From Amoebidium appalachense (lineage: Eukaryota; Protista; Ichthyosporea), in the NCBI GenBank assembly GCA_963693365.1, contig CAVNZM010000002.1, forward strand, positions 12,518,328 to 12,582,327: 64,000 bases of DNA. The letters run 5' to 3'. The position numbers were made by a program, and so were the translations under genes. How positions within the stretch are numbered: position 1 is the first letter of the stretch; every line of letters starts with the position of its first letter. The notes under the pieces were generated by a model that saw nothing but the letters and a program-made list of their open reading frames with translations, did not search any database and was not told the DNA's origin. This document shows positions 9,935 through 51,853 of the stretch, one piece after another.

Positions 9935-10884
9935 TTTATGATTTAATTAACGAAAAGGTTTACAGACTATTTCTAAAACAAGACTTGTGTGTGCATTTGA
10001 GCAAAAAGTAGCGAAAAGCAACATGGCACCGAGCTGGTGTACAGCCGTGGGGAACCTACGCTGCATAGCCTTAGGAAACTAAAATTACTTTACTAAGCAA
10101 GATCACTTGCAATTGGTGTTCAAATAGAGCTGGAAGTGTGAGCAGCTATGTACTTTACACCTCAGTTTTCTGTGTCAGGCTGATGGGGTCACAGGGAATG
10201 CTAACTGTGAGAACCACAAATCTGTTGCATAAACCGTAAGGCTTAGGTGTGCAAGACATAAACAAACGAGCTACATACATGGTTAACGAAGTTTTTGACC
10301 GAGAAGTGCTGAAGCTCGACACTGAAACGTCTGCTTGAACATCGATAGAAGCTGCAAGACTGACTGTCACTGACCTGACTAGCTAGGCTAGCCAACCTTC
10401 AAGATATGATACCTGAAAATTGAAAGTCGCTTAAATAGCACGGTTGCTACTGCTACATATGGACTCTCTCAGAACTCGGACATGGTTTTTATGAAAAAAC
10501 AAATTCGACTGTCCGAGTTTGACTCGATCAGTGATAGCGAGGATCGCGTCTTCCAAAGTTTTAGACTCGCCGATGCTTTGATTGGACAATATTGCACCAA
10601 GGGAAATTTCTCTGTAGATCGAGATTGCGATTCTTCATCCCGTCGCCTGTCGGCCGGGGGTTGCCTGGGTTTGGCGCTCTTAATCGTATTTAGGCAACTT
10701 CACTTTCACTTCGATCTCTTAGCTGTCACGTCAACTTTTTTTCCCGGTTCTTCACCATGGCAGGTATATAAATACTTTCGTTTCTTCTTTTTGTGGTGGG
10801 ACTCAGGGGAACGTGACTGCAGCGTTTAAATTTGTGTGGTGTGGCCTGACATGTATTCCTATACAACATATGGGGGCGCGGAAC

Positions 10885-11360
10885 CCCGTGGATGTGACGT
10901 CACAGGTGTGACGTCACATCCACACGGTCCCGCAGCCCCCAAAGATATGGCATAGGTGGATATGAGGTGTGTGATATCTGTGTATATCGCGACATGGGAT
11001 ATGAGATATGGGTGGATATATGTACAGGAGCACGTGCACACATTGTGTGTGCAAAACACGTGCAGCGCACGTGGTTTTAATTAAAAAATTAAATAGAGAG
11101 GGCGGAACACGTGTACGCGTACGTGTGCGCGTACATGTGGTGCGCACACGTACAGGTGCTGCGGATCCAAGGAATGCGAGAATTCTGAATTCCGGCGAAA
11201 ACTGACCAATGGGAATTCGAATCCTGAATTCAATGGGAAACTGACCAATGGAAATAGTCGCCCAATGGGAATTGGGCGAAAAAGCAAATTTGCCGGAACA
11301 CTGACCAATCAGAACGCGTAAGCCGAAATCTGTACATTCCATCCCGAAACTGACCAATAG
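10885..11360 (+). promoter_or_regulatory. Terminal regulatory region: palindromic CRE pair and CCAAT repeats
   Basis: TGACGTCA at 10895-10902 and 10909-10916 inside an inverted repeat (GTGGATGTGACGTCAC...GTGACGTCACATCCAC). ACTGACCAAT occurs four times between 11201 and 11360, upstream of the PolB-like ORF. Mirrored at 37336-37815. Confidence 0.5.
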
Positions 11361-11689
11361 GACCGCGAATGGCTCATTGTTTTTGGTAAACAGAGGCGGC
11401 CGGCCGGCGGCGGCCAGACACGCGCACAGATTTGTTGTTTTTGCGTACTGCTTCGTGAGATTTGGAGAGATTTTTGCTTTTGAGATTTCACTGGGCTTTG
11501 AGATTTAATAGACACAGGCACAGAGACGTTATTTTGCATGCTGTTTTTTATTGAGGCATTGCTCTGGCACAGCCAGGCTAGCAACCATCGATTAGATTGA
11601 TACTTGAGATTTATAAGATTACAGCCTGAGATCTAAGGTTACCATTCAAGATATTCAGCGAGAGCCAGGAAGAGTTTGAAGATGATCTG

Positions 11690-13186
11690 TTGCGGGCACT
11701 GGATGCCGACCCGCAGCAGGTCCTGCAGGCCCACCCCTTCCTGCAGGCCATGTTGGCCCCACCACCCCCACCCCCACCCCTCCCCGGCCAGCCCCCCGCC
11801 CCCGCCCCCATCAATCACCCCGATGACCCCCAGATCATTGCCATGCCGGCCGAGGGCAACTGGCAACTGCGTTCCCGTGTAGATGACATGCAGGCACGGG
11901 GACTGGGTGTGCGTGGCCACACCCTCGAGTACCAACCCCTGCGCACCCTTGACGTGACTGAGTTCCCCCAGTTTTTTGCAGCCATGCTGTTCGATGCCAT
12001 GGCCCGTGCAGATGTGCAGGCGGGGGACATGCTGATTGTGCGTATCATCAGCCTGCACGTGCAGGCCAACGGTGTGGACAACCAGATGGGGGATGATGGC
12101 AACCCCAACGCCGACGTGACCAACCGTCGTGTGTTTACTGCCGGCCCCATGGAGGTGTTCAATGGTGATGTCAACGCCGTGGTGCTCAAGCGGATGGAGA
12201 ACATACGGCAACGCACCCAGAGTGCAGCCGAGACCTTCATGGACGGCAGATCCACCGTGCATCTGACGGTGGCCCGACCCAAGGACATGGTGAGGAGGGG
12301 GGCCTGCGGGTCCCTGTCCACCACCACGGGGGTGAATGCACAGTGGCTGCAGGATCTGGTGGAGGCCAAGGCCGTGGTGGATGTGACCGCCCTCGTGCAG
12401 GCTGCCTGCAGCACCGACGACCCACAGGTGACCGGGGAGAGGGCCCTCGACCACCAGCAGCTGCACGGCTTTGCCTACGGCCCCAACTGTGCCCAGCTGT
12501 GCCTGTTGTACAGCATGGTGATGTGGGTGAAGAAGGCAGCCAATGGCAACGAGCAGGCCAGCCTGCCCACCGAGCACACACGCAAGGTGCTGGGCAAGGG
12601 GGGCAACCTCATGGATCGCAAGGACCACCACGTGCTGTGCCACCTGCTGACCCCGGAGGAGGTGTTGGGGGCCGGCAACACGACCCTGGGGGTGTCGAGA
12701 TCTTCCGGCTGTGGGGTGTGCAACCTGCTACTCCCCCCCACAGATCCAAGGAGCCACCACCAAGACCGTTACCTGCGGAGATTGGTGAGGGCAACCCGAG
12801 TGCTGTGGACCAAGTACGACCTGCCTGTGCCTGCAGAGGACGGCCTGACGGTGGATGAGCTGGGGGCAGCCGTGGATGCCCTCAACACAGCCATTGCCGA
12901 GCAGCCTGAGTCAGTCACCCGCCTGCGGCTGGTGGTGGTGGACATGGACAGCGGGGCCAAAGTGCTACGCCGGTACGGGGACCTGAGCATGGCCCTGCCC
13001 GCCTCCAAGCTGTGCACCATGTACTTGGCCCACTCACAGAAGCTGGGCCACTTCACGGCCATCACCTCCAGTGTCAGCACGACCATCGAGCGCCTACGAC
13101 ACAGCAACCACACGGGGGAGGCACGACGGAACCTCAGCACCTGCTACTACCCTCTGTCCTCCATCCCACCCCCAACCCCACTGTAA
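11690..13186 (+). pseudogene. N-terminal fragment (terminal protein plus OTU-like domain) of a Polinton/adintovirus protein-primed DNA polymerase B
   Basis: Motif order typical of the Polinton pPolB N-terminus: RQRTQSAAETF...VHLTVARP, NCAQLCL (putative catalytic Cys), ATRVLWTKYDLPVP...GLTVDEL, LRLVVVD, MYL...GHFTAITS (putative catalytic His). It stops at STCYY, the apparent start of the CxxC Zn motif; there are no exonuclease or polymerase motifs. Confidence 0.7.
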
Positions 13187-16100
13187 ACAGTTGGACTAGT
13201 TAGGATAAGGCAGAGTACAACTGAATCAAAATAAAGACAGAGAACGGGTAGAAAGGCACACGCGGCCAGGTTGCTTTTACTATGGGCCGACTCAGTCTGT
13301 CTCAGACTTCACTGATGTGATCCCCGTACTGGGACGGCTTTCTTATATAGCCCCCAGGTTTCGGATCAAGGCCCAGGATTGGTTCATCCGCGGCCAGCGC
13401 GGGTGGCAACATGCCATTCGTGATTCTGGTGCGGTCCGAGCCAGTCAGACCTTTGTCCTATTTATGCAAACCTCTTATTGGTTCACTTCGTTTATGTGGT
13501 ATGCAGCTGAAGAACCATATATGGTTCAATTCTTAGGTAAGAGTCAGTCCTATTGGTGCGGACATAATATTTATGTGATATTCATGACAAAGCACACGAT
13601 TCATTAGTAAACATGTACAGTTCATGTGTACAGTTGTTTACACTCCCCCCCTTGTCGGGAGCCTGGTGGTGTCGTTAGACAAGCAAACCACCAGGCTGAG
13701 AGGCGATAAACAACCTTCAGCGAGAATTCTTGTGCGCCGAGCTGCTGGGCAGAACAGAGCAAGGACGGTTGAATAGAGTTGTGCACGTCTATGAGCACTT
13801 CTTCATTTGCCAAAACGTAAATTCATGCAGCATTCTTCTGTGATTTCATTTTCGTGGCGAAGATTGTTGCAGAGTGTGCGTGCGAATAATTCGCTAAGCC
13901 TTCGTCTCTGTGCTTGGCTTTTCTGTAGAAGTAGTATTTTCCTTTTTGGGAATTTTTCCTTTTTAGGATACTCCCGCAGATTCGTTTTCAATTGCGAGTA
14001 ATTTGGTTGTGTGGATGAATGATCATACCAAACATTCGATAATGAATATAACTCGAGCCTTAGGTCACTTCGTACTCAGGTAGTGGTGGATAGCTTCAAG
14101 GCTTAGCCACTGCTCGTTATCCCGGTTCTACCTTAAGACTGTAAGGCGAGTCACCATGGCCGGAAAAGCCGCTTCTTTCATGAACAAATAGCACTTCTTT
14201 CCTTTCAGCTTTAACCCTGCATCATCGGAGCTGGGAAAAACATGAATAAAAATGCCCAAGTGTTCTTCGTTGGGCGACATAAAGAAATATATCACCCGTC
14301 AGAACCAGTAAAAGCCCGGTTCATAATTCATAAGAAGAGGGTAGGCAAAGCAAGCCTCCTTCAGAAAACACATGCTTCCATTCGTGAGCAGTTTTCGTAT
14401 CCCATTTGCCAGCCATTTTCGTTGAGCAGGGGGATTCCAGGCATAATACATTCTTCTGGAGGCTTGGCCTAAAAAGAAAAGTCGTCACAGTCGCCCTTTC
14501 TTTTGTAAGCAACTTCGTGAGCGTGCTTCGTGTTTTCATATCCTCCAGTGCAGGTCTGGATGGTGCCCCATCCTCTGCTTCATTTGTAGGTGGCCCTACT
14601 GTAGGTTCTGTTCGTTATGTGGAATACCAAAACCATTCGTATTCGTGGAACTGCTTTGTGCTGTGCTTTCTTTCGTGTTGGTGTTCATGAAGTTACCCCG
14701 TTCACACACCCTACTTCTTACATACATTAGATGTAAGTAGCTGCCTGGTGAGTGTGTGGTTCGTGTTCGTGGCATTCTTCTGTTCCTTCGTGAGAAGAAT
14801 ATTCGTTTTAGCAGAGGTGCCCAATAAGGCAGCTTGTGGGGTTGTCTCCCGCATGTGCCCATTGGTGGGGTATGCACGTGCTAAATTGTTACAGTGTCAT
14901 CATATTGCAAGGGAATAACATGGTCACCTCCGTACCAGGGCCTAGGTACACATGATGGTCCGATGTGTTAGTCAACAACACCTTGCATTCGTATTCGTAT
15001 TCGTCTTCCACGTCACTTTCTTCAGTAGTGAAGGAGGGTATTCGTAATTCGAAACTGAAAGGCTTCCAGCCAAAATACTGACACTGTATGCTGGGATTGT
15101 GAGGGAACGGTGCCCATGCCACATTCTTTTGTTCTGGTGGGGGTGTGCCGGCAGCTAGTGCAAGGCTTGACAGTGTAATTCGTATGTTACAGTATTGCCA
15201 CAGACTGGCAAGTACCATTAAATTCGTACCCCACACTTTCGTTTGTCTTTCACATGCACGAACAAAAGTTCTGCATCGACTTTATTAACAACAATGTCAT
15301 GCCTTCTGTGCACCAAGAGTGCAAATTCGTTTGGGCATGGCACCAGGAAGGGCCATACATGAGGCATATGTTCGTAATGTGTTTAGGCATGCCAGCATAC
15401 ATTCATGCGCATGTTGTGCATCCTGTGCGCTAAACTATGGGGCATGCTGTATTCGACAACAGCAAGGGATTCGAAGCATGCATGCAACACTACTTTCATA
15501 AAATCTTAGGTCCTACATGCTATAGCAACAGCGACTATCTTCTTCTTTAAGTGCATTTGTGCTGAAAGTGGCCGTGCATCTGAGTTGCGAGTGTGGACGT
15601 GCACGCAGTGGCATGGACACGATGACAGTGTGCAATAGCGCAATGCACGCAAGAGCAACAGTTTCCTTGTCTTCGTAACATAGCGGGGGCCGTGTGCATT
15701 GCAACCTAAGCAGTGTTGTGCATTCGTTCTTTTCATTTTCGTGTTTCCATTTCATTTTGCTTTCGTTTTTCGTTTTTTGTCGTTTGATAACTTCGTTACT
15801 TTGTTTTGTTTTGTGTTGCATTCATTTCGTATTTCCTCTATGCATTCGCTTGTCGTTAATTCTTTATTTCATTGCGTATTCGTGATGGTTCGTTTTTCGT
15901 TGGTTCATTGCTTCGTTAGCAATTCTTTATTCGTTTGTTCGTGTATTCGTTGTTTCGTTGTGTGTTCGTTTTTCTTCACATTTTTGATGTGTCGTAGCAA
16001 AAGAAGTTTTACATGCTTTCAATTCTTTCCGTGTAGGTGGGCTGGCCACTTCAAACTTGTCGGTGTATATATTCTAAGCCGGACAAGGAAAGATGTGCCT

Positions 16101-16758
16101 ATCATCGGGGTAAAAAGGATTGTGATCGGCCATGGGAGATTCTTGAGCTGATTGAAAGATGTGAGATTCTTGAACTGATTGAAAGATGTGAGATTCGAAG
16201 GATGCGAGATTCTTGAACTGCGCGGTCGCCAATGTAAACAGTTGGCAATGTATAACAGTGTCCTGCCGCGGTCGCCAATGTAAACAGTTGGACTAGTTAG
16301 GATAAGGCAGAGTACAACTGAATCAAAATAAAGACAGAGAACGGGTAGAAAGGCACACGCGGCCAGGTTGCTTTTACTATGGGCCGACTCAGTCTGTCTC
16401 AGACTTCACTGATGTGATCCCCGTACTGGGACGGCTTTCTTATATAGCCCCCAGGTTTCGGATCAAGGCCCAGGATTGGTTCATCCGCGGCCAGCGCGGG
16501 TGGCAACATGCCATTCGTGATTCTGGTGCGGTCCGAGCCAGTCAGACCTTTGTCCTATTTATGCAAACCTCTTATTGGTTCACTTCGTTTATGTGGTATG
16601 CAGCTGAAGAACCATATATGGTTCAATTCTTAGGTCAGAGTGAGTCCTATTGGTGCGGACATAATATTTATGTGATATTCATGACAAAGCACGAATCGTG
16701 TGCTAGTAGATCACATTCTTTAGTAAACATGTACAGTTCATGTGTACAGTTGTTTACA
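13182..16758 (-). mobile_element. Non-autonomous Gypsy-type LTR element with degenerate internal region
   Basis: LTRs 13182-13642 and 16279-16758 (TGTAAACA...TGTTTACA); 5-bp TSD CCCAC (13177-13181, 16759-16763); PPT next to 13643; PBS 16260-16277. Gypsy RT relic EEHL...VF...AGLKLKGKKC near 14150-14270. Confidence 0.9.
16260..16277 (-). other. Primer binding site complementary to a tRNA-Arg 3' end
   Basis: The plus strand reads GTCCTGCCGCGGTCGCCA, the 3' end of eukaryotic tRNA-Arg(UCG) plus CCA, 1 nt from the LTR. Confidence 0.8.
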
Positions 16759-16976
16759 CCCACCCAGCTCTGAAGGAACAACAGTTGTAAACAGACTATG
16801 TACGCTGTCAGACTATCAGGGGATTAGGGGATTATGTTCTCTTTCTGCAACGATTTTCCACAGAACCCCCCCCCCCTCCCCTCCCCCCCGGCCCCCCCAC
16901 TCCCCTTCCTAAAATGCACACAGGCACACATGCAAGTAAGCGCACGCACGCACACCCACAGCCGCACACACACGCG

Positions 16977-17015
<39 letters not shown>

Positions 17016-17078
17016 CCGGTTGTATCCCTCGCTTATAAAAATGTGATTCATGTTGTTCTGATAGAGTTTTGCCGGCAG

Positions 17079-20089
<3,011 letters not shown>

Positions 20090-22431
20090 GGACGGTGTTT
20101 TTGGTTTAGTTTGCCGTATCTCCGTGTATGAAATAATGCAGGGAACATCCAATACGTGGTGTTTTTGGTTGAGTTTTCCGAATCTCCTGGATTTATCGGC
20201 GTTTAGGAGAGTGAAACATGTAGGGAGTATCAAAAAAAACTGTGTTTTTGGTTTGGTTTTACGAGTTTCCCATGTCAGAGGGGGGGGGAAACAATTCGAT
20301 AATAGAGAAACCCGGGCGTTTTGGGGTTCTTTTTCTGAGTTTTCCCCAACTCGAGGCACAAACTCAGGCTAACGCGTGGTTGCCTGTACATGTGGAGGAC
20401 GAGGAGGAGGATGAAAACATGTAGGGAACATCGTGGTGACGTCATGCGTGACAAATGTTTCCGGCCCGGCTGTGCTGACTTGGCTGACGTAAGCTTAATT
20501 AAGACAGCAGAGTCGTAGAAGAGCAAAATAGATGACGAGGACGTTTTTTGACCTATACCCTTTAACCTATGCTAGCCATTGAAGTTTTTCAGTAGCTTGT
20601 GGAGCTTAGACAGACGAGCGAAGCGCTTTACAGCCCAAGGGGACCCATTTGCCTGCGAGCTGTGACGTCATACTTGGCGTAAGAGTCCAGTGGTGTGTGT
20701 CTGGAAGTCTATGGTCGAATATTTCATGGTTCCTTTGATGATCAGAGTACCTCGTCCCATTACCTCCACACATGCCTAGTCGAGCATGAGCTCTTTGTCG
20801 TAAGTAGCACTTGCGGCAACCCAAAGTAACTAATTTTGCACTTCTTTTCGGGTTCGACAAGAGTTTTTTCCGGACATGGTGTACAAAACAAAATAATCAG
20901 TACTGAAGCTATGGCAGCTCGTGATCACATAGATGCTGTTTGGCCTAGTCTATTTCGCCCGTTGAGTCTTAATGAGTCCTGAAATAACAGGGCTGGCTGA
21001 CAAAGAGCTTGTCGAGACCTTGATCGAGACAGTTGTTAACGAGCATGCTGTTCAAGTTTGTCCTGATGACTAAGTCAAGCTGAAGCTTCGATTCCATGAA
21101 AGCGATGCGGATAGTACACACACACATGCACAAACACTTACCCCTGCCATTCACTTGCTAACAAACATCAACCATACTCTTGCTGTCCCCTCTCTCTTGT
21201 TCAACACGTGCTTACTCTTAAGAGATTCGATCACCCTTTTCCTTTTGCCTCTTACTATCCCCCCGATTCCGTGCTTGCTTACTTGATACCCCCTCATTCA
21301 TGCTCAACCACACACACACATGCATGAATTTGCTTTTTCTCCCCTCCCTCCCCTATCACCCCCCATGACTTTTTTATCTCCCTTCTCTCCTCGGAACCAC
21401 AACTATTTCGTACTCTGGCTCACCTCACACACACGCTTTCACACACTTTCTCTCTACTTTCGAACCACCCACCAACCCACTCGCCGTCCCTTCTCGTATA
21501 TCTCCTATTTGCGCACTATCTACAGAAGTGAGCTATCGAGAGATTCACATTCGTCTTTAGATTCTATTATTATATATCTTTTATATTATACTTGCCCAAC
21601 AATCTCTGTTCCTCGTTCCCTATAGTTGTTGAAAACCTTTGTGACACGTCCTTAATATGACCTATGAATGCTAAGGCTTAATGCCAGTTTTTGCAAATGA
21701 TTGACAACACTGTCATTTTTTGGTATAAAGCTGATAGACCCACACAGGAATCCAACTAAGCGCGGGGCATGGCTTCTGTGCTTCTGTGATGAGCCATGCT
21801 TATCATTGCACAGTATAGCTAGCTTTAAGATGTCTAGTGTGTATGAACACATCAGGACATCTTGGCACCCTGGCACCCGGAATGGATAACGAGGGGGTAG
21901 AAGAGAGGAGTAGAACGGGCAGAAATCAAATCAACTGCCGCCGAGCTGCAGCGGCGAGACCCTAAGACGGCATCACCAGGGCCACAATCTCTTGGGAAGG
22001 CTTCTGCGTCTGCATGGCATTTAAGTGCGTAGTCAACTTGAGAGAAAGGTCATTCCAGCCTTATGTATTGATGTGGTCGTCAGCAAGGGTGAAGTGTCGA
22101 TAGTGTAGGTCATTCGATAGAGCAGCTTACGGCTCCGACTAAAAATTCAAAACAAACGGTGTCCCTTGCTTCACTCAAATAAACGGCTAGCTATTGCCAC
22201 CTGGGCCCTGCAAGCGCTTTCACTGACCTTCACTCATATCCACTTTGCATGTCTTACAACTGGACTTGTACATCATCAACCTATGCCACAATCTCATAAA
22301 CAACCTTCAAAAAATCAGTTTCCTAACAGCGAACAAATATATCTAAAACGAGTTTGCTGCATGCCCAGGCTCAAAGACGCCGGAAGTAACTCAACCATAA
22401 CAACTTCTTACGAGGACCTCTGACCAAGCAT

Positions 22432-22830
22432 CTACTGCCCGGCCTTGGGATGGGGCTGGAAAGGGTAGTCTGCAGACAGGCCGGTCTTCACCAGAACATC
22501 CCACGTAAACGCCTTGAAGGCTTCCACCTCCCTCTGGTGCTTCTGCTCCTGTATCTCCAGCTTGTGCTCAAACAACTCCCTCTGGGCAGCCATTTCCTTT
22601 TCCTTGCTACGCAGCTCAACCTCGACGACCGCCTGAGTCTTGCTGATCTTTTCCTCCACGACCGCCTGAGTCTTGCTGATCTTTTCCTCCAGAACTGCAG
22701 TGCGCTGACGGTTTGCCTCAACGTAATGAAACGTAGCCCCGAACGTCCCAAACAGGGCCACCGCTGCGGTAATATTTGTTGCATTGTCGGTGAAGGCCTG
22801 AAAAAACCGTTGCGCCCAGTGGGTTGTCAT
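22432..22830 (-). CDS. Small intronless protein: hydrophobic segment followed by a coiled coil
   Basis: 132-aa ATG-started ORF with ITAAVALFGTFGATF followed by an E/K/Q-rich helical region containing a 33-bp tandem repeat (EEKISKTQAVV x2). Confidence 0.5.
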   Translation of the reverse strand: MTTHWAQRFFQAFTDNATNITAAVALFGTFGATFHYVEANRQRTAVLEEKISKTQAVVEEKISKTQAVVEVELRSKEKEMAAQRELFEHKLEIQEQKHQREVEAFKAFTWDVLVKTGLSADYPFQPHPKAGQ

Positions 22831-23104
22831 TTTTCTCTGACGACTTCTTGGTAGACTAGAGCAAGGCCTCCTTCCTGCAAATGAAAATGGGCGAGCGATT
22901 GGGCAAACTGATGATCATGTATGTTCGCAGACAAGGGTCGACGGGTCGCTTTTCGGGCCAGCACTCCAGATGTTCGCATGGAAAAGCAGGGAAACCCAGT
23001 CCGAAGTGGGTTTTAAAACTTTAAGGTGAAATCATATATTTTAAAAAGTAAAATATCATGCTATCGTATGCATTTATTACGGATATTATGTAATAAATAT
23101 CATG

Positions 23105-23302
23105 GGGTTTACGCTGTTTACTCGAGGCAAAGAGAACCAGTCTCAGGTATGGGGGGGGGTTTTGCTCGGAATATCCCCTCAGCGGTATATCATGATCACG
23201 TACATAGATATAGATGTCGGGTGGTGACTATATATCAGGGTTTACTTTCTCTACGAGACACCATAAAGACTATAAGGAGAAATCAATTAGTTGGGGTTCC
23301 CC

Positions 23303-23343
<41 letters not shown>

Positions 23344-23373
23344 GGGCTCCCCTCGGGACACTCGGTATCAGCT

Positions 23374-23465
<92 letters not shown>

Positions 23466-26425: not shown

Positions 26426-26439
26426 ACATCCAAAACATA

Positions 26440-28090
26440 TCAAACCCATCTAGGATATGCAACTGTATATTAATGGATAGCTTTTGGATATCCACACGAT
26501 ATGTAGGATGGTTTCAGTCGAACATATCAATACCATCCACTGGATATATACAACATGTCTATTTCCTCCTGACCTCCAACCAATGTCCAATATGTATGTA
26601 GTTCCATGCTTAGATAGTGAACAAGATATTGCACCCCCAATAAATATCACATATGGATATCCATGCTGTACCTCCATTGGGCATCGTTGTGATATCAAAT
26701 ATCTGGATATGCAATCAATGCATATATGGATACATAAGTGCACCTATAATGGCCATTAAATACACATTAGATGCATATGAATGCAGACATCAAAGGCCAC
26801 CTGGTTGGTTCGGCATGTATTGGATATTAGACATATGCCCACAATGGATATCGACGCTGGATATCCAATGATGGAATTTCAACTGCATTCCTCCGTTGGA
26901 TAGCTATATGGATATGTAACATTCTGGATATCCATTTGGATGCTTAGCTGTATATTAGACTGGATCAGTAACAACATATCCAATACATGACTGACAAGGA
27001 TATCCGATCAAAATCCCCATACAGATATCAAGATATCCCTGTAGCAAGACATGCAATACACCTAACAAGTATATCCAATGGCGGTCTATAGTGGATGTCC
27101 ATATTGGATATCCATTATAATATCCAGATGGATCGCTAATACATGTGCATTTGACCCCAACGCTAATGAACAATGCATGCCCATATTGGATACGTTCCAT
27201 GGATATCCATTCCGATATCCAGATACATACGCATTTGCTTGTCCACTAGACCCTCCTATAATAACCAAAGCATGACGATTCCACATATCCAATTAGGTCA
27301 CCAAACTTTATGGCTCTGACGGTTATCCATATACACCCGCATGCTGATGTCCAATAGACAATCATACTAAGACACAATGGATAGCTATACTGGTTATCTA
27401 GGCTCAACATCCATACAGATATCTTGATACAGCTGCATTTGCCCATCCACTAGACCCTAATACTAATATCCAATGCATGACGAAAATACATATCACAATA
27501 GACCCCCATACCGATCTCCAACGGCTATCCATATGCACCCCTGCTTACCCATCCAATATATGTCGATATTCATATACAATGCATCACCATTCACAATATC
27601 TAATTTTAATATCCAACATGATATGCGGATACATATACACCTACATATGCACTCGGCACCTATGTTGATACCTAATGCATGAAAAACAAACATATCAAAG
27701 TAGATGTCCAACCTAATGCCTAACACTTAACAAACATACATGTTTTGGGATATCCATTAACACCCGTATCTAATACTTATAATATCACTATAACAGCTAT
27801 CTGGGTTGATACCCATACAGATAGCCAGATACATCTGTAGCTACATCTCTAGGGTACATCCACTGGATTAATTGCATAATTTTGGTACTGTATATCTGCA
27901 ACATATCTATTAGTGTGTATTTGATGTGTAATAAGGCCTTTCCGGATAAACATTATACATCTTTACCGATCCATCGCATAACCATATGATGGCTAATGAC
28001 CACCATTGATAAATAATTTATGTCTGATATCTATCACATAAGTAATACTTATCCACGGTACAAAGTTACACAACCACGTTATACTCGGTT
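26440..28090. repeat. AT-rich degenerate array of GGATAT/ATATCC motifs
   Basis: Dense recurrence of GGATA, TATCC and TGGATATCCA in both orientations over ~1.6 kb; no credible ORF. Confidence 0.7.
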
Positions 28091-28366
28091 CCACAAATCA
28101 AGGGGAAGAAATAGATAAAAAAGAGGAAGAAATAAGAAAGAAAAAAAAGAAGAAAAAAAAAAATCCAAAACCCCACAAATCACCCACACACCTTAAGACC
28201 ACAGGGATCATCTCAGCATTCATAGGCCTGTAGCCCACATGCCCAACCTGGGCAAGCAGTGCCTGTATGAACCCTGAATGGCTGCCAACCCCTATGTGCC
28301 GTATACTGGGGCCTGGTGGTGTTGTTTTCACAGCATGAGCCAGAAATCGCTATTCTACCCCCTTAC

Positions 28367-29558
28367 TGTTATTTTGTGTGGGTAAACGGAGAAGCAGAGA
28401 GCACAGATGGGTGTTATGTAAAACACAACACAAAGACACACGGGAAAAACACAACCGGAGAGGAGGAACGATTTCTGGAACCATAGGAAGTGAATACGAC
28501 TGCTTGTAATTTATTTCAAGATGAGGTCCCTTTTATACTTGGGAATGTGAAACGATAAACCAATCAAAAGAATGAAAACTATGAGTGTAAAATATATTGA
28601 ATAAAATGTCTGTCGACATTTAGAATATAAAACTCAATCCTCTAATGAAAGAAACTTCTAATAAAAGCACGGAAACATTTAATAAAATGAAACCACTTAT
28701 GTAACTATTAATTCATAACATATATTTATACATGTTCTTATCATAACACGTCTAAATATAATTTTTTTTCTTAATAGTTGAAGAACATAGCACAATGCTA
28801 CGTCGTGGGAAAGGAATGAGAAAGGAATGTAAGTTACTATATTTGGGAAAATACAAACGAGATATGATTGGATGACATATATAGATTTTGACGCAAACGA
28901 CAATACGTGTGCGCGAGCTAAGTATGTCGATACGTACACAGATCTAAGATGTCGTGTACACGGAAACGGAAAAGAAAGAAAGAAATGAAGAAAGGAAAAG
29001 GAAACAAACTACAACAACTAATAAATAAATACCAAACTCAACTTCTAAGTCTTGCTGAGAATTAAGTGAAGATGACATCCCCACTCAAGGGTTGGAAGTT
29101 GGGTTCTCGTGAAGTTTGTTGATGTGACTGTTGATGTTAAGACTTTCACACATGTAGAAGTAGGTGCCGTGAAGTCACAGTCAAGTTTCCCCACTCGAGA
29201 AGACAATGGAGAAGACTTGAAGGTGCAAGCCGGGGAAGAAAACCAAAACGGAAGAAGCACACAACGACGGTTGCCTCTGAAGACTCGGAAGATGACGGTA
29301 GCCAATGACGTGATATATAAATATATATAGAAGAAACAACTAGTGTATGTGTGACGTGTTGGTGGCTAATGTTAAATACATTATATATATGGTGGTATAT
29401 AAATAAACGACGGATGGTGGAGAAGAAATCCCCACTGAAGATGCACACACTGAAGATCGATGAAGACAGCAGTAGACTTTCGTTGGGAGGTGTCTCTACA
29501 CGGTGATGTGTAGACCACTGGCCAGGGCCCCAACCTACTTGAAGACCACTGTAGATGA

Positions 29559-29606
<48 letters not shown>

Positions 29607-32600
29607 CTCAGTCACGAAGACTGAGTGAATCACGGTGTTGCTCGTGGGAGGGCCCGGGCAGGGGCTTGGTGAAGATGTCAGCCACGTTGTCTTTGCTGGA
29701 CACGTAGGTGACGACCACATCCCCACTCTTGATGTAGTCCTTCGTGTTGTGGTAACGGACTGCAATGTGTTTGGTCCGGTGCTTGATGCTGTTGGTGTGC
29801 AGGAGGGCAATGGTGGACTGGTTGTCACAGTAGACGGGGGTGGGGTCGGTCATCGGGTAGCCGAGTTCACGGAGGAGATCACGGTGCCAGATGACGTTTT
29901 GAACAGCAGCATTGATGGCCAGAAGCTCAGCCTCGGTGGTGGATGTTGCCGTGATGGACTGCAGCTTCGAATACCATGTGATGGGTATGCCCTTGAAGAA
30001 GATGACGTATCCGGGGGTTGAACGACGGGTGTTGGGGCAGTTGGCAAAGTCAGCATCAGAATAACACTCCAGCAAGGGGGTGTTGTCGTCGGAAGCAGAC
30101 TTGTCGTAGTGAAGGCCGAGGTTGGAAGTGCCGATGAGGTACCGAACTACACGGAGTAGACATTCCCATGCAAGTTTGGTGGGGTTGGCACTGAATCTAC
30201 CGAGGTAGCCGATGGCAAAGGAGATGTCGGGCCGGGAACAACGAGCAACCCACAAAAGACGGCCGAGTAGTTCACGGTAGGGAACCTTGATGGGTGGTGA
30301 GTCGTTCTCGTTGATGGTGATGACGGTGCCGACGGGAATGGGAGTAGCCTTGGGGTGAGCATCGTTGAGGTTGAAGTCTCTGACGATGTCGTTGATGTAG
30401 GATTGCTGAAGCAGCTTGAGGTGACCGGGGGTGTGGATGAGCTGGGTGCCAAGGAAGATGTCGGGAAGGTCAACCTTGCAGAGAGCTGACTTCATGATGT
30501 GGTCTACTAGATCCTTGGTGTGGGAGGAGTTGGCCGTGCAGATGATGATGACGTCGTCCACATAGTTGCCAGTGAGGATGATGTCACCGTTGGGGAAGGT
30601 CTTGATGTAGACACATGGATCTGAACGGAGACGTTCGAGACCGTGAGCAAGGAGGACCTTGTCGAAGTACTCATACCAGGCCAGTGATGCTTGCTTGAGC
30701 CCGTAGAGTGCCTTCTTAAGTTTCCAGACCTTGTGTTCGTTGCCGGGGGTGATGAAGCCAGGTGGTGGCTCAATGTAGATGTCTTCTTGAAGAGGACTGT
30801 TGAGGAAGGCAGTTGAGACGTCGAGTTGATGAATCTCATGGTTGCCGTCCACACCGATGGCAAGGAGGGCACGGACGGAGGAGGACATCACCACGGGGGA
30901 AGAGGTGTCACCGTAGTCAACACCGTAGACTTGAGTGAAGCCCTTTGCAACACCACGAGCTTTGATCTTGGTGTCACCGGCTGAGTTGAGGACTTTCTCA
31001 GTCACAATCCACTTGAACTTGATGATGTTGGCACCAGGGGGGGGATCAACAATGGTGAAGACATCCTTGGTGATGAAGGCTTGGTACTCGGAGGTGAGGG
31101 CAGCTATGACGGCATCACCGTTGGGACCGTTGCAAAGCTTTTGAATGCCCTTGGGGAGCTGGTCAATGTTGATGGTCGGTGCTACGATGCTGACCAGTGC
31201 CGTTGGAGTCTTGGTGAGACGTGTAGACCGACGAAGGTTGGGCTTGGGGGGGTCCTTGAGGGGGGTGGTGGCCGGGTAGGTGGTGGAGGCCGGGATAGGG
31301 GCATGGAAGCCAGGAATAGGACCGGTGGTGAGGGGGGCATCGGTGTCCACAGGGCTGCTCGTGGCCGAGTGGAAGGTGGGGGACCCAGGACGAACCGGAG
31401 TCATGTAGCCGGGTTGATGCACAGCAACGGGGGGGGCCGGCAGCAAGGGTTGTTGGCCAGTGGGGAGGGGGCTCGGGGGAGGCACGGGTTCAACCGGGGC
31501 TGGTTGGTTGTGCCAGGACGGTTGGGAGATGACCACAGACGGAGTTTCATCGTCGTCGTCGGAGGGGGGGTCCAATGTCGGCAGATCGGGTTTGGGGGGA
31601 ACGGAGACCTGATTGGTGCTGCCCGTGAATTTCGACTCGTCGAAGATCACATCACGGCAGATCTTGATTTGGTTGCTGGCATGGTCGAGGATCTTGTGTG
31701 CCTTGGAGGGTAGGTCCCAGCCGACGTAGGTGCCGACTCTGACGGTTGATGCCAGCTTGTTCCTCTTTGACCGGGGAACATGCACATAGGCAGGGGAGCC
31801 GAACACGTGGAGCTGGGAGACGTCGGGTTTGAAGCCGTGGAAGGCCTCGAAGGGAGTGTTGCCGTTGGCAGCAGATGACGGTGTGACGTTGATGATGTAG
31901 CTTGTATGCTTGAGAGCAGCAACCCACAACTTGGGAGAGAGAGGTTGGTCCTTGTCGGCATGGAGGAAGCAACGGACTGTCTCTTGCAGTTCTCTCATCT
32001 TCCGTTCAACAACACCATTGTGTTGTGGTGTGTCGACGGGGGCAAACTCCATGATGATGCCTTTCTGCTTGCAGTAGGCCTCGGTGTCCTTGGAGGTGAA
32101 CTCAGAGCCGGAGTCAAACCGAAGATGGGTGACGATCTCAGGTGTCTGACGTTCGATGGTTTCAACGAGAGACTGAATGTGGCTGAGGGTTTCACCACGG
32201 TTGTAAAGGGGGAATACGGTGGTGTAACCGGTGGCATCACAAACACACACCAGAGCAACCTTGTAGCCTCCGTAGGAAGCACAGGGAGCTTCGAAGAAGT
32301 CCAGGTGCCACTTAGCACCGGGAATGGTGAACTTGGAACGGGTGCCGGGAAAGGGGGCCTTGGTGGTCTTGCCAGACATGCAGCCGAAGCAGTCACTGTT
32401 GTCGGGTGACTTGAGGGAGGGGGGCATGCCGATGACAAGCTCATCCTTGGCCATCCTGGTGACGGTGGAGAGGGCACGGTGGCCGAGACGGTTGTGCCAA
32501 AGGGTGAGGTCGTCGGGTGGTTGAGTCCTTGCTGTGTAGGCTTGGACCCCCGGGTGTTTAGGAGTCTCAATCACATAGTCAGTGATGTAGTAGAGACCGT

Positions 32601-34756
32601 CGAGGGGGGTGAGATCTGTAATAATGTCACCATTACGGCTGTAGAGGAACGACGGGTGGTTGTCTGTATCGTCACAATGACCTAGGAGGCCGGCAGCTGA
32701 TGCCATGGAGGTAGACACGAGGAAAGACGGTGCCTCGGGTACGTAGTAAGCATTGATGCTGCACGGTGTTGGGTGGCCGTTGTAGTGCAGTGTCATGTTG
32801 ATGATGCCACGTTGTTTGGCATTGACTGTGCCGAGGCCGTGAATGGGGGTGGGAGGACACGGGGTAAGGGAGGAGAAATACTCCTTGATGGGGCAGATGT
32901 GTGCATTACAAGCACTGTCCCAGACGGGGTCGTTACTGTCAGGTGTGCCGGTGGAGGAGATGAGTGCAAATTTCACACTCTTGTCACCTTTCTCCTGCTT
33001 GGCACGACGAGCAACTGTGCAGCCAGGCTCCGGGCATGCTGTGATGTGGTGGGGCTCATGGCAGTAGGAACACTTCACACTGTTGGTGTTGTGCTGTCGG
33101 TTACGGTTGTCCCTGTTACCACGGTGGTAAGGGGAAGTTGAACGGGGGCCGGGTGACTTGGAGGGAGGACGAGGATCACGGGAACGGGACGGGGAACGGT
33201 GAGGTGTATGCTCACGTCGAGGAATACGGTTACGGAGGTCACCGGGGGGAAGCACTCTGCTCTGGAGTGCACGGAGGGGACGGTTGTTGACGGTTGCACC
33301 TGTGCCTGCGTCGATGAGGCCGGCACGGATTTCAGCTCCTCGGATGTCACTGATGAGCATGTTGAAGGACGGGTAGGCCTTGTTGTTCATCCAGTAGTCG
33401 GAGCAGAGACGTTCAATGTCGGGGCAGACCAGGGCTGTGTTCTTCCGGATGTGGAGGAAGAACTTACGTACGACATCCTTGTGCTGGACGGGTTCGTCGA
33501 GGCAGGCAAGTGTCGTAGCCAGACGTTGGAGACGGGTGAGGTATGCTGTGACGTTGGGGTAGTCTCGTAGTTCAAGCTCCTCGAAGGTGACTTGAATCTG
33601 GGTGACTCGGGCCTCCTTCTCTGCTACATACGCCATACGTAGGTTGTGGAAGACTTCACCACCGTGGACACCGTCTTGCATCCGGCCGGAGTCGTAGAGC
33701 TCGGTCGGGTGGACGGACTGGTTGAGGATCTGGTCGAGGACGTCGGAAGCTTTCTTGTAGGAGTCCTTGGTGGTGTAGCCTAGCCACTGGTTGGCTTCAG
33801 CGCCGTCAACCCACTGTGGCCTCTTGATAGCGTCAACGAATTTCTCGGCAATGGTGGTTCTAATGAACCGGTGAATGAGTGGCTCCCACTCGAAATAATT
33901 AAGACGTTTCTCGTCTCGTTTCTCGGACGGATTCCATATTGGAAGGTTGATATACGACGGTTTGTCAGTCATGATTGAAGCAGTAAGACTGAGAGATTTT
34001 CGCGGTTGTAGCGAGATTGTGTGTTAGCGTGCAAAGGGGCCGTAAACCTGTTATTTTGTGTGGGTAAACGGAGAAGCAGAGAGCACAGATGGGTGTTATG
34101 TAAAACACAACACAAAGACACACGGGAAAAACACAACCGGAGAGGAGGAACGATTTCTGGAACCATAGGAAGTGAATACGACTGCTTGTGATTTATTTCA
34201 AGATGAGGTCCCTTTTATACTTGGGAATGTGAAACGATAAACCAATCAAAAGAATGAAAACTATGAGTGTAAAATATATCGAATAAAATGTCTGTCGACA
34301 TTTAGAATATAAAACTCAATCCTCTAATGAAAGAAACTTCTAATAAAAGCACGGAAACATTTAATAAAATGAAACCACTTATGTAACTATTAATTCATAA
34401 CATATATTTATACATGTTCTTATCATAACACGTCTAAATATAATTATTCCTAATAGTTGAAGAACATAGCACAATGCTACGTCGTGGGAAAGGAATGAGA
34501 AAGGAATGTAAGTTACTATATTTGGGAAAATACAAACGAGATATGATTGGATGACATATATAGATTTTGACGCAAACGACAATACGTGTGCGCGAGCTAA
34601 GTATGTCGATACGTACACAGATCTAAGATGTCGTGTACACGGAAACGGAAAAGAAAGAAAGAAATGAAGAAAGGAAAAGGAAACAAACTACAACAACTAA
34701 TAAATAAATACCAAACTCAACTTCTAAGTCTTGCTGAGAATTAAGTGAAGATGACA
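28367..34756 (-). mobile_element. Full-length Ty1/copia LTR retrotransposon (Copia-2)
   Basis: LTRs 28367-29077 and 34049-34756 (TG...CA, a few differences); PBS GGTTTACGGCCC 34037-34048; PPT next to 29078; TSD CTTAC/TTTAC; the empty site is preserved at 17512-17516. Confidence 0.96.
29608..33972 (-). CDS. Copia gag-pol polyprotein (Gag, PR, IN, RT, RNase H), intact 1454 aa
   Basis: CSYCHEPHHITAC, WDSACNAH, LWHNRLGH, DSGSEF...NGVVER, LYGLKQA, YVDD, YSDADFA, STTEAE, CDNQS, KHIAVRYH, ADIFTK. Confidence 0.96.
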   Translation of the reverse strand: MTDKPSYINLPIWNPSEKRDEKRLNYFEWEPLIHRFIRTTIAEKFVDAIKRPQWVDGAEANQWLGYTTKDSYKKASDVLDQILNQSVHPTELYDSGRMQDGVHGGEVFHNLRMAYVAEKEARVTQIQVTFEELELRDYPNVTAYLTRLQRLATTLACLDEPVQHKDVVRKFFLHIRKNTALVCPDIERLCSDYWMNNKAYPSFNMLISDIRGAEIRAGLIDAGTGATVNNRPLRALQSRVLPPGDLRNRIPRREHTPHRSPSRSRDPRPPSKSPGPRSTSPYHRGNRDNRNRQHNTNSVKCSYCHEPHHITACPEPGCTVARRAKQEKGDKSVKFALISSTGTPDSNDPVWDSACNAHICPIKEYFSSLTPCPPTPIHGLGTVNAKQRGIINMTLHYNGHPTPCSINAYYVPEAPSFLVSTSMASAAGLLGHCDDTDNHPSFLYSRNGDIITDLTPLDGLYYITDYVIETPKHPGVQAYTARTQPPDDLTLWHNRLGHRALSTVTRMAKDELVIGMPPSLKSPDNSDCFGCMSGKTTKAPFPGTRSKFTIPGAKWHLDFFEAPCASYGGYKVALVCVCDATGYTTVFPLYNRGETLSHIQSLVETIERQTPEIVTHLRFDSGSEFTSKDTEAYCKQKGIIMEFAPVDTPQHNGVVERKMRELQETVRCFLHADKDQPLSPKLWVAALKHTSYIINVTPSSAANGNTPFEAFHGFKPDVSQLHVFGSPAYVHVPRSKRNKLASTVRVGTYVGWDLPSKAHKILDHASNQIKICRDVIFDESKFTGSTNQVSVPPKPDLPTLDPPSDDDDETPSVVISQPSWHNQPAPVEPVPPPSPLPTGQQPLLPAPPVAVHQPGYMTPVRPGSPTFHSATSSPVDTDAPLTTGPIPGFHAPIPASTTYPATTPLKDPPKPNLRRSTRLTKTPTALVSIVAPTINIDQLPKGIQKLCNGPNGDAVIAALTSEYQAFITKDVFTIVDPPPGANIIKFKWIVTEKVLNSAGDTKIKARGVAKGFTQVYGVDYGDTSSPVVMSSSVRALLAIGVDGNHEIHQLDVSTAFLNSPLQEDIYIEPPPGFITPGNEHKVWKLKKALYGLKQASLAWYEYFDKVLLAHGLERLRSDPCVYIKTFPNGDIILTGNYVDDVIIICTANSSHTKDLVDHIMKSALCKVDLPDIFLGTQLIHTPGHLKLLQQSYINDIVRDFNLNDAHPKATPIPVGTVITINENDSPPIKVPYRELLGRLLWVARCSRPDISFAIGYLGRFSANPTKLAWECLLRVVRYLIGTSNLGLHYDKSASDDNTPLLECYSDADFANCPNTRRSTPGYVIFFKGIPITWYSKLQSITATSTTEAELLAINAAVQNVIWHRDLLRELGYPMTDPTPVYCDNQSTIALLHTNSIKHRTKHIAVRYHNTKDYIKSGDVVVTYVSSKDNVADIFTKPLPGPSHEQHRDSLSLRD

Positions 34757-34969
34757 TTTACTCCCCTCCCCCTCACCTTTTTTTTTCGCACACCACATAC
34801 ACACACACACACACACACACCCTCCCCCCACCCACCCACCCACCCACCCACCCATACCCCCCCCCCCCCCCCCCCCACACACACACCCACCCCCACCCAC
34901 CCACCCACCCACCCACCCACGTACACACACACACCCATACCCACACACACTCACACACACCCACACACA

Positions 34970-35012
<43 letters not shown>

Positions 35013-35257
35013 ACGCACACTCACACACTCACACACACACACTCACACACTCACACACACACACTCGCTCACTCACACACACACACACGCACACACACAC
35101 ACAAAAAAAAAAAAAACACACACACACACACACACGCACACGCACCTGCTAGCTCCCACAGCTGTTCCAGAAATGCTTGTGCCCGCTGTTTCACCTGCCG
35201 GCAAAACTCTATCAGAACAACATGAATCACATTTTTATAAGCGAGGGATACAACCGG

Positions 35258-35298
<41 letters not shown>

Positions 35299-35519
35299 CG
35301 TGTGTGTGCGGCTGTGGGTGTGCGTGCGTGCGCTTACCTGCATGTGTGCCTGTGTGCATTTTAGGAAGGGGAGTGGGGGGGCCGGGGGGGAGGGGGAGGG
35401 GGGGGGGGGGGGTCTGTGGAAAATCGTTGCAGAAAGAGAACATAATCCCCTAATCCCCTGATAGTCTGAAAGCGTACATAGTCTGTTTACAACTGTTGTT
35501 CCTTCAGAGCTGGGTGGGG

Positions 35520-37020
35520 TTGGGGGTGGGATGGAGGACAGAGGGTAGTAGCAGGTGCTGAGGTTCCGTCGTGCCTCCCCCGTGTGGTTGCTGTGTCGTA
35601 GGCGCTCGATGGTCGTGCTGACACTGGAGGTGATGGCCGTGAAGTGGCCCAGCTTCTGGGAGTGGGCCAAGTACATGGTGCACAGCTTGGAGGCGGGCAG
35701 GGCCATGCTCAGGTCCCCGTACCGGCGTAGCACTTTGGCCCCGCTGTCCATGTCCACCACCACCAGCCGCAGGCGGGTGACTGACTCAGGCTGCTCGGCA
35801 ATGGCTGTGTTAAGGGGATCCACGGCTGCCCCCAGCTCATCCACCGTCAGGCCGTCCTCTGCAGGCACAGGCAGGTCGTACTTGGTCCACAGCACTCGGG
35901 TTGCCCTCACCAATCTCCGCAGGTAACGGTCTTGGTGGTGGCTCCTTGGATCTGTGGGGGGGAGTAGCAGGTTGCACACCCCACAGCCGGAAGATCTCGA
36001 CACCCCCAGGGTCGTGTTGCCGGCCCCCAACACCTCCTCCGGGGTCAGCAGGTGGCACAGCACGTGGTGGTCCTTGCGATCCATGAGGTTGCCCCCCTTG
36101 CCCAGCACCTTGCGTGTGTGCTCGGTGGGCAGGCTGGCCTGCTCGTTGCCATTGGCTGCCTTCTTCACCCACATCACCATGCTGTACAACAGGCACAGCT
36201 GGGCACAGTTGGGGCCGTAGGCAAAGCCGTGCAGCTGCTGGTGGTCGAGGGCCCTCTCCCCGGTCACCTGTGGGTCGTCGGTGCTGCAGGCAGCCTGCAC
36301 GAGGGCGGTCACATCCACCACGGCCTTGGCCTCCACCAGATCCTGCAGCCACTGTGCATTCACCCCCGTGGTGGTGGACAGGGACCCGCAGGCCCCCCTC
36401 CTCACCATGTCCTTGGGTCGGGCCACCGTCAGATGCACGGTGGATCTGCCGTCCATGAAGGTCTCGGCTGCACTCTGGGTGCGTTGCCGTATGTTCTCCA
36501 TCCGCTTGAGCACCACGGCGTTGACATCACCATTGAACACCTCCATGGGGCCGGCAGTAAACACACGACGGTTGGTCACGTCGGCGTTGGGGTTGCCATC
36601 ATCCCCCATCTGGTTGTCCACACCGTTGGCCTGCACGTGCAGGCTGATGATACGCACAATCAGCATGTCCCCCGCCTGCACATCTGCACGGGCCATGGCA
36701 TCGAACAGCATGGCTGCAAAAAACTGGGGGAACTCAGTCACGTCAAGGGTGCGCAGGGGTTGGTACTCGAGGGTGTGGCCACGCACACCCAGTCCCCGTG
36801 CCTGCATGTCATCTACACGGGAACGCAGTTGCCAGTTGCCCTCGGCCGGCATGGCAATGATCTGGGGGTCATCGGGGTGATTGATGGGGGCGGGGGCGGG
36901 GGGCTGGCCGGGGAGGGGGTGGGGGTGGGGGTGGTGGGGCCAACATGGCCTGCAGGAAGGGGTGGGCCTGCAGGACCTGCTGCGGGTCGGCATCCAGTGC
37001 CCGCAACAGATCATCTTCAA
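35520..37020 (-). pseudogene. Second copy of the pPolB N-terminal fragment
   Basis: Near-identical to 11690-13186. One extra C in the C-run near 36915 shifts the N-terminal frame; the frame reads on into captured host sequence. Confidence 0.7.
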
Positions 37021-39178
37021 ACTCTTCCTGGCTCTCGCTGAATATCTTGAATGGTAACCTTAGATCTCAGGCTGTAATCTTATAAATCTCAAGTATCAAT
37101 CTAATCGATGGTTGCTAGCCTGGCTGTGCCAGAGCAATGCCTCAATAAAAAACAGCATGCAAAATAACGTCTCTGTGCCTGTGTCTATTAAATCTCAAAG
37201 CCCAGTGAAATCTCAAAAGCAAAAATCTCTCCAAATCTCACGAAGCAGTACGCAAAAACAACAAATCTGTGCGCGTGTCTGGCCACCGCCGGCCGGCCGC
37301 CTCTGTTTACCAAAAACAATGAGCCATTCGCGGTCCTATTGGTCAGTTTCGGGATGGAATGTACAGATTTCGGCTTACGCGTTCTGATTGGTCAGTGTTC
37401 CGGCAAATTTGCTTTTTCGCCCAATTCCCATTGGGCGACTATTTCCATTGGTCAGTTTCCCATTGAATTCAGGATTCGAATTACCATTGGTCAGTTTTCG
37501 CCGGAATTCAGAATTCTCGCATTCCTTGGATCCGCAGCACCTGTACGTGTGCGCACCACATGTACGCGCACACGTACGCGTACACGTGTTCCGCCCTCTC
37601 TATTTAATTTTTTAATTAAAACCACGTGCGCTGCACGTGTTTTGCACACACACAGTGTGTGCACGTGCTCCTGTACATATATCCACCCATATCTCATATC
37701 CCATGTCGCGATATACACAGATATCACACACCTCATATCCACCTATGCCATATCTTTGGGGGCTGCGGGACCGTGTGGATGTGACATCACACCTGTGACG
37801 TCACATCCACGGGGTGCCGCGCCCCCATATGTAGTCCTATACTGCTGTGAGAGTGTGGGGGCATCTCCCTTTCGCGGAGTTTCTTGCTTGAGAAGTGGTT
37901 TCTTCAACGCTTGGTGGTCCACTGCAACCTATGGTAACTTCTACACGCTGTCTACGCTTCTACGCGACCTATTGGCGGTGGGCTGCTGCAATTTCTTCAG
38001 CTACTTCTGCGCCGCGTGAGTGGAGGGGCGGCTACTTGGTCGTCGGGGAGCTTTCCAAGGGACTGCCAGTCCTTAGCCTCCAATCGTATGGCAATGACCG
38101 GGTTTGCTTGCATGCATTCTGTAATTGTGTTTTTCTGTGTGTCCTGCCACAATTAGGCCACCTTATCAGAGAGCTAGATGCAGTTTCTCCGGGCTATCTA
38201 GGGGCCGGGCCCGTTGGGATTGTTTTTTAGCTCAGATTTGGTCTGCATTGCTCTTTTAGAGGCTGACTTGCTTGCTGTGCCTCGGTAGGTTTTGAGGGGG
38301 GCCTGTTGGGAAGGAGCAGTAATGATGCCTTCTTGCGGAGTGTGGTCTGGTCAACATTGATGCATATGACTATAGCTAGTTGGAGCAAACTACTTTCACG
38401 CATACACGTACACTTAAGCTTGTTTTGCCCGCTGGTGTCCTTATAATCACTTGTCGCTTTATTTATATTTCAGTTCTATTGGTGGTTATGTAGCCTGTGG
38501 CTGTACGTTGCCTTCATCAACGGATCAATAAACCCGAGTCAAGAGAAAACTTCCGAGCATTTTGATACCCCCCAGGGTCGTATTTACTAATTGGATGCCC
38601 GGTTTTCTAAATCGTAATTTGGGTCGATACGATTCGTAAGGCAAACCCTTGTTTCAGGCCTTCCACGGAAAAAAAAAAATTCCATAAAAGGTCTCGTTTT
38701 GGTTATAAGCGTTACGCCCGCAACAAAAGGCAGACTTTTATTGCGCACATTGCAAAAAAACAATTATGTCGGGTGTAGAATGTAATAATATATATCACCT
38801 TTCGAAGAACCGAGCCTTACTCAGAGGCGTTTTTCGTCATCGCATTCTCCAATAAACGGAACGAACTATGATTGGACAAAAGAGCACCATGTATGTATGT
38901 CTTCCAAGACTCGTTTCTTATGGACCACTTTGGATCTACTATTCAAAAATCGATCAATTTTTTGCTTCGCTCCAACACCCGAGGTTGGCCGCCATAGGGC
39001 CGTCGTTTGTCGGGCTGCCTGGCAGCGGCTCCAGCTGCCCGACGTAGAAGCTACTTCTGGCCAAGACAAACCCCTTTACGTAACAATATTTGCTTTTTCC
39101 TCAAAATGCTACACAGATGCTTTTTATTATAAATGATAATTTCTATCGTCTTAGTTATTTTGGGGTTTGCAGGCTTGT

Positions 39179-47410: not shown

Positions 47411-47515
47411 AATGTCGCTTTTTATTATCTGCTAATAAATAGTATCCTTCGCGCATCCACCCCTAAACCAGGCCATCCGTGGCCCTAAGGGCCGGGGAAC
47501 ACCCCCATCCATGTC

Positions 47516-51245: not shown

Positions 51246-51296
<51 letters not shown>

Positions 51297-51405: not shown

Positions 51406-51442
<37 letters not shown>

Positions 51443-51790: not shown

Positions 51791-51853
<63 letters not shown>

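Follow-up and report, generated by a model that had tools for sequence, protein, structure and literature searches.

The window, the whole stretch of 64,000 nucleotides analysed here, comes from Amoebidium appalachense (assembly GCA_963693365.1, contig CAVNZM010000002.1, positions 12,518,328 to 12,582,327) and is the DNA of an intron-rich eukaryote. Self-BLAST of the window delimits an insertion of about 27 kb, at 10864..37834, that ends in two inverted arms of about 3.3 kb and is flanked on both sides by the same direct repeat (Table 1). Three blocks of alignment make up the arms, namely 10863-13181 against 37835-35514 (99.5% identity over 2,322 columns), 16759-17515 against 35518-34758 (95.2%), and 17511-17748 against 28367-28130 (97.1%). 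Overall, the arms are 98.0% identical over 3,325 columns, in agreement with the near-identical arms of about 3.3 kb net reported in a preliminary description of this DNA, and 12 substitutions separate them in their first 2.6 kb. Three of the five substitutions in the first 2 kb lie inside the outer 50 bases. The left arm ends in CAACATATGG and the right arm, on the opposite strand, in CTACATATGG.

Both arm ends directly adjoin the heptamer TCCTATA. The register of this target duplication is ambiguous, as it can be drawn with 7 bp, with 5 bp (CCTAT), both already proposed in the preliminary description, or with 6 bp and uneven ends. By simple arithmetic, a random 7-mer would adjoin both ends with a probability of about 1 in 16,000 per register.

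Table 1. Features of the arm-bounded element and of its target site (window positions).
Feature	Positions	Strand	Remarks
Left part of the target repeat	10687..10856		very high-copy repeat split by the element; resumes after 37841
Left target-site duplication	10857..10863		TCCTATA (5 or 6 bp in other registers)
Left terminal region	10864..11629	+	terminal hairpin, two CRE palindromes, CCAAT boxes
Predicted terminal DNA hairpin	10867..10949	+	-35.3 kcal/mol, z -8.1; 0/200 shuffles equally stable
Arm open frame	11630..13186	+	518 codons, stops at the LTR insertion
LTR retroelement	13182..16758	-	left arm only, without intact genes; duplication CCCAC/CCCAC; strand inferred from polypurine tract and primer site, by eye
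Left-arm tail	16759..17748	+	intron-like DNA, rich in microsatellites, with an exon-like segment of 49 nt
Cargo A	17749..19960		host-intron-like DNA continuing the left arm
Cargo B	19961..23104		repeat-poor DNA with an orphan ORF of ~130 aa
LINE copy	23105..24309	-	5'-truncated; 11-bp duplication TAAATATCATG
Cargo C	24310..26400		broken pogo/Fot1-like transposase relic and orphan ORF at 24712 (+)
Cargo D	26401..28129		AT-rich degenerate GATATC direct and inverted repeats
Right arm, inner end	28130..28366	-	junction to cargo D within a T/A tract
Copia element	28367..34756	-	right arm only; 1,471-codon pol frame
Right arm, remainder	34757..37834	-	tail, ORF copy, terminal region
Right target-site duplication	37835..37841		TCCTATA

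The arms are interrupted by two long terminal repeat (LTR) elements, each present in one arm only, as first described, and bounded by its own 5-bp duplication. The duplication of the Copia element (CTTAC/TTTAC) carries one mismatch. The left insertion had been labelled Gypsy, a name that finds no confirmation, as three of its open reading frames (ORFs) were scanned without any family at the cut-off. Subtracting the two LTR elements leaves 16,994 bp, close to the 17 kb estimated earlier, and subtracting a third insertion, a copy of a long interspersed nuclear element (LINE) located between the arms, lowers this figure to 15.8 kb. The LINE copy is 98.7% identical to 48937-49698 by BLAST. In the three public sequencing runs with a listed contig at position 23104, the contig departs from the window there, with 11 different letters, which fits the LINE being private to this copy. 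The stretch 23104-23413 was also considered as a separate short interspersed nuclear element (SINE) and rejected, as it is the 3' end of this LINE.

The element sits in a repeat. In the public runs (X1, X2, X6 and X9), the 170 bp to its left and the DNA to its right are very deep, and thus the target is a high-copy repeat. This repeat (10687-10863 and 37835-38300) is unclassified, and many contigs loop from about 10796 to 10697. One X9 contig, in which TCCTATA is present only once, extends from the right flank leftward into letters that agree with those of the left flank at 24 of 27 columns, a score equalled by 3 of 2,000 random 63-mers of the window in a sample that could include the site itself. 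What this contig shows is the unoccupied state of the site in a paralogue of the repeat and not the empty allele at the locus itself; it speaks against both a local inversion and an assembly artefact.

A fold-back read or a mis-join is hardly credible as the source of the structure. Long inverted repeats are a familiar artefact of long-read data, and no junction-spanning read was seen. Against this, each arm carries a separate insertion with a duplication of its own, the 12 substitutions mentioned above distinguish the two, and the target duplication agrees with the independent empty-site form. It is very improbable, too, that two opposed Polinton remnants merely surround a piece of chromosome inverted or duplicated in place, the whole never having moved as one. 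Polinton-mediated inversions are described at eri-6/7 of C. elegans (accessible part of 10.1101/2024.01.15.575659), and the arm family is abundant. However, both arms share a non-viral tail of 1 kb and the same break point, a single target duplication brackets the whole, and the flanks together make up one split repeat. By depth, the interior is multi-copy whereas the left flank is single-copy, so that single-copy cargo, which the preliminary description had named as a sign of local rearrangement, is not what was found. The empty-site form largely refutes this explanation. The 27 kb element is real and well defined and is probably mobile as a unit, and its proposed integration as one unit is borne out by the target duplication together with the empty-site form.

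The terminal regions hold the promoter-like CRE/CCAAT signals noted previously. The left terminal 500 bp include two CRE palindromes (10895 and 10909) and five CCAAT boxes (11206-11354), three of which lie inside AACTGACCAAT. A hairpin built on the two CRE palindromes is predicted for about 85 outermost bases of each arm, and its right-end counterpart (37749-37831, z -6.5) was likewise equalled by none of 200 shuffles. Polintons end in the dinucleotides AG...CT. These are not matched by the element, whose ends start with CA and CT or, in the 5-bp register, with AC. Contigs jumping from 11314 to 10930 reach about 12, 15 and 7 single-copy depths in X1, X2 and X6, respectively, indicating that some family members repeat a 385-bp subterminal unit or differ in arrangement. 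The terminal DNA patterns gave no match in viral and metagenome contigs, and no Rfam family was found anywhere in the window.

These ends invite a comparison with cut-and-paste foldback transposons of the P/Galileo or Mutator type, one of which could have captured a fragment of the protein-primed polymerase pPolB and moved by means of a DDE transposase instead of the Polinton machinery. CA ends are typical of P/Galileo elements. A 7-bp duplication and ends starting with C would fit them, 7-bp targets being reported for Galileo (accessible part of PMC3573991). A P-like transposon with a THAP domain resides in the same genome (49699-53237), and a pogo-like relic was recognised by eye inside the element. 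However, the resident THAP transposon, the only one whose termini were compared, differs in its ends (33 bp, unrelated) and in its duplication (8 bp), and the arm terminus resembles nothing else in the window by BLAST. The pogo-like relic is broken, and no terminal repeats were found for it. Moreover, terminal and ORF bins have similar depth, which suggests that terminus and ORF move jointly, and the duplication in any register falls in the range of Polintons/Mavericks, described as elements of 13-25 kb with long terminal inverted repeats (TIRs) and target duplications of 5-8 bp (accessible part of 10.1101/2023.08.22.554363). A foldback origin is thus held to be improbable.

The link to Polintons comes from the arm ORF. 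Modelling predicts a PRD1-like terminal-protein domain (little-finger/PAD fold) at about 11900-12290, and the first domain of the ORF is accordingly predicted to adopt the terminal-protein fold found at the N-terminus of Polinton-type pPolB, in keeping with the pPolB N-terminus proposed in the preliminary description. The second domain may be vOTU-like, as judged by eye from candidate motifs around Cys (codon 287) and His (codon 474) set against the usual patterns. Its model has a predicted local distance difference test (pLDDT) score of 38 and gave no informative match, only generic helices. An arrangement of terminal protein (TP) followed by vOTU is known at the N-terminus of Polinton pPolB (10.1101/2024.03.18.585575). 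Coding bias is lost after about 505 codons, there is no DNA_pol_B match and no polymerase core in the arm ORF, and its right-arm copy is out of frame at a C run close to its 5' end.

Homology searches with the arm ORF returned little. Profiles of Pfam, PHROGs and NCBIfam gave nothing, as did a word-index search, whether the length was set longer, near or shorter. With 1.84 billion representatives as targets, phmmer gave no hit at E<=0.001, and PDB sequences gave only two matches, at E 0.06, on a proline run. In the ESM Atlas, the best match (0.84) is unnamed, and the other query had no usable match. No relative was found in metagenome contigs, and in viral contigs one of six candidate stretches scored as a relative, with no locus returned. 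With Foldseek, neither the viral nor the PDB libraries produced a match at E<=0.001; adintovirus proteins at rank 7 (E 0.14) and rank 11 (E 0.22) are hints only.

Nothing viral was recognised between the arms. Among all 26 interior ORFs of at least 100 aa, the longest having 386 aa, none reaches the cut-off for any Pfam family, whether integrase, packaging ATPase, protease, capsid, DNA_pol_B or other, and the rve domain is confined to Copia frames. The earlier statement that the element has no integrase, capsid or ATPase of its own thus holds for 26 of 26 ORFs. The cargo had also been described as about 10 kb of host-like DNA and transposon relics. Relics are present, and a label of captured host DNA is fair, by composition, for about 3 kb, namely the arm tail and cargo A. 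Indeed, the simple-repeat content of the arm tail (0.22) and of cargo A (0.17) resembles that of the introns of the AP3B-like gene of the window (0.18), and the exon-like segment of the tail (17079-17127) is flanked by host-type splice sites. The remaining 8 kb of the interior consist of repeat-poor DNA, two orphan ORFs, the LINE, the pogo-like relic and AT-rich repeats, and about 70% of the interior is not intron-like. No homologue or parent gene was found for the cargo, and the proposed role as a vector for spliced host genes is conjectural.

Some details of the cargo deserve mention. Three 57-nt repeats occur within 17638-18417 among microsatellites, at spacings of 354 and 369 bp; one plus-strand frame is open in all three copies and one minus-strand frame in two of the three, and tandem exons are a possibility. 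The orphan ORF of cargo B (22435-22830, minus strand) is intronless and by eye includes a hydrophobic stretch and a coiled-coil-like part; it has no relative in viral contigs and only weak coiled-coil matches in PHROGs and NCBIfam. A second intronless orphan ORF of about 110 aa (24712-25050, plus strand) belongs to no family found. The pogo/Fot1-like relic (25008-26301, minus strand) has no Pfam or PDB support. Cargo D is several-fold deeper than the other cargo and may belong to another mobile family.

The depth of contigs in public runs is no copy number, and it nevertheless informs on abundance. In X1, a single contig with a depth of 48.7 represents the left flank and matches the window without a difference over 2,187 bases; in X2, the flank is covered by four identical contigs with depths of 5.5-6.8, and X1 or X2 may be the strain of the window. 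Relative to this single-copy flank, the listed cargo contigs reach 6.3-11.1x in X1, 9.3-15.8x in X2 and 3.4-8.9x in X6, where the baseline is weak, all ratios to be halved if the left flank is a heterozygous allele. Between the X1 cargo contigs and the window, there are 11 differences in 4,100 bases. Joints bypassing each LTR insertion have 4-10 times the flank depth, and in all four runs the depth of the ORF bins exceeds that of the tail bin by a factor of about 4-15. Gaps in cover, complete in X6 at 9076-10515 and nearly complete in X9 at 18300-22968, were not used as evidence. Depth, the only support here, suggests a large family sharing terminus and ORF, within which a subfamily of about 5-15 copies per genome shares the cargo.

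The question of whether the members of this subfamily all carry two long arms also turns on depth. A whole unit is never covered by one contig, and the joint depths, compared among listed contigs only, place the arm joints at 0.5-1 times the cargo depth and not at double, so that a pair of arms in every copy is only presumptive. The family may instead have one long left part and a short or different right end, the second arm of 3.3 kb being an acquisition, through gap repair or gene conversion, of this copy alone or of its direct parent. Consistent with such a one-off event, no listed contig crosses the inner right junction (X9 record 27 stops at 28122 and X6 record 22 at 28104), cargo D has its own, higher depth, and TIR extension through recruited internal sequence is published for non-autonomous Galileo elements (accessible part of PMC3573991). 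On the other hand, the joint depths would be lower bounds if alleles split the contigs, and the window-type letter at 12441 has a depth of about 700 in X1 and 150 in X2, near twice the cargo, at this one site. A clean target duplication also requires both ends to be integration-competent. This origin of the second arm is considered rather unlikely.

On balance, the element is most plausibly read as a non-autonomous derivative of the Polinton/adintovirus type that was copied to several loci with the help of another element. An ancestral element would have suffered a break directly downstream of the terminal-protein/vOTU part of pPolB, where chromosomal DNA and transposon relics became attached. 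Its lost second end may then have been restored as a copy of the outer 3.3 kb of the left end, with priming in a T-tract, which the position of the right inner junction in a T/A tract fits. Panhandle repair during protein-primed replication is known from adenoviruses. The end could have been copied in this way or by gap repair in the chromosome, and chromosomal repair, by analogy with TIR extension in Galileo, would fit as well. The unit would have been amplified to roughly 5-15 near-identical copies, with polymerase and integrase supplied by an autonomous relative. The present copy split the high-copy repeat, duplicated its target and later gained one LTR element per arm and the central LINE.

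Entries for non-autonomous Polintons exist in Repbase. Like Polintons and adintoviruses, the element has a target duplication of 5, 6 or 7 bp, within the range of 5-8 bp, and a predicted N-terminal TP part of pPolB, followed by a candidate vOTU domain. Unlike an autonomous Polinton, it is without polymerase core, integrase, ATPase, protease and capsid, its TIR of 3.3 kb is one third non-viral and exceeds the expected 100-1,500 bp, and it has no detectable sequence homology. Butterfly polintons (accessible part of 10.1101/2025.02.07.637071) resemble it in the loss of polB with mobility kept, in transposon cargo and in TIRs of about 2 kb containing duplicated core genes, whereas they keep other core genes and the present element only the N-terminal piece of pPolB, with an entirely non-viral interior. 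Nematode Mavericks with wasp or krma cargo (accessible part of 10.1101/2022.07.12.499685) also place intron-containing DNA beside the terminal repeat. Those elements are largely complete, with identified cargo genes and cross-species transfer, whereas this one is gutted.

Pack-MULEs (accessible part of PMC6431247) and Galileo 2RT (accessible part of PMC3573991) are likewise non-autonomous TIR elements with captured DNA or TIRs lengthened from internal sequence. However, they move by cut-and-paste and are smaller, Pack-MULEs being mostly of 1-2 kb and Galileo TIRs reaching 1.26 kb, in contrast to the 15.8 kb and virus-type ends found here. In Amoebidium itself, endogenous adintoviruses form many insertions, some truncated or degenerating and polymorphic among isolates, whereas the accessible part of that work (PMC11244446) describes no multi-copy, cargo-filled derivative with mirrored arms. 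As far as these sources extend, mobile polintons without polB, Mavericks with intron-containing cargo and TIRs of 2 kb that include genes are already published. A literature search, with subscription papers, Repbase and supplements outside its scope, returned no multi-copy element consisting of ends and a terminal-protein piece, with non-viral DNA inside the arms and nothing viral between them.

Near-identical copies devoid of genes offer a way to ask what Polinton-type mobility needs in cis, here apparently the ends alone. If other copies share both arms, ends can be rebuilt by copying kilobases of the opposite end, and the spread of 10 kb of non-viral DNA would resemble that by Pack-MULEs, on a tenfold larger scale. 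Testable leads on replication priming are the terminal hairpin and the terminal-protein frame kept in the arm. A more far-reaching and decidedly doubtful possibility is that the element is a satellite of an endogenous adintovirus-like virus. Such a genome-sized unit of 15.8 kb, with two origins and its own self-cleaving terminal protein, would be replicated and packaged by the helper, compete with it like a copy-back defective-interfering genome, and move spliced host exons into new loci and from strain to strain.

The surroundings of the element hold other genes and transposons. The minus strand carries a single-copy gene (8545-9946), identical in X1 and X2 where covered, that spans two overlapping frames; its product is rich in proline and glycine and has a signal-like start. 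Two further Copia elements lie at 575-5070 and 39179-44103; the latter has identical LTRs of 305 bp and an open frame of 1,379 codons and is thus a very recent insertion. The P-like transposon at 49699-53237 (3.5 kb) encodes a THAP domain (Pfam E 7e-11), is bounded by perfect 33-bp terminal repeats and an 8-bp duplication, includes intron-like stretches and is inserted into the 3' part of a LINE (47489-53622). A host gene resembling AP-3 beta adaptin extends over 57964-63420 on the plus strand, with one exon matching solved AP-3 beta chains at E 1e-18. Its introns are long and rich in GT/CA and poly-G/C runs.

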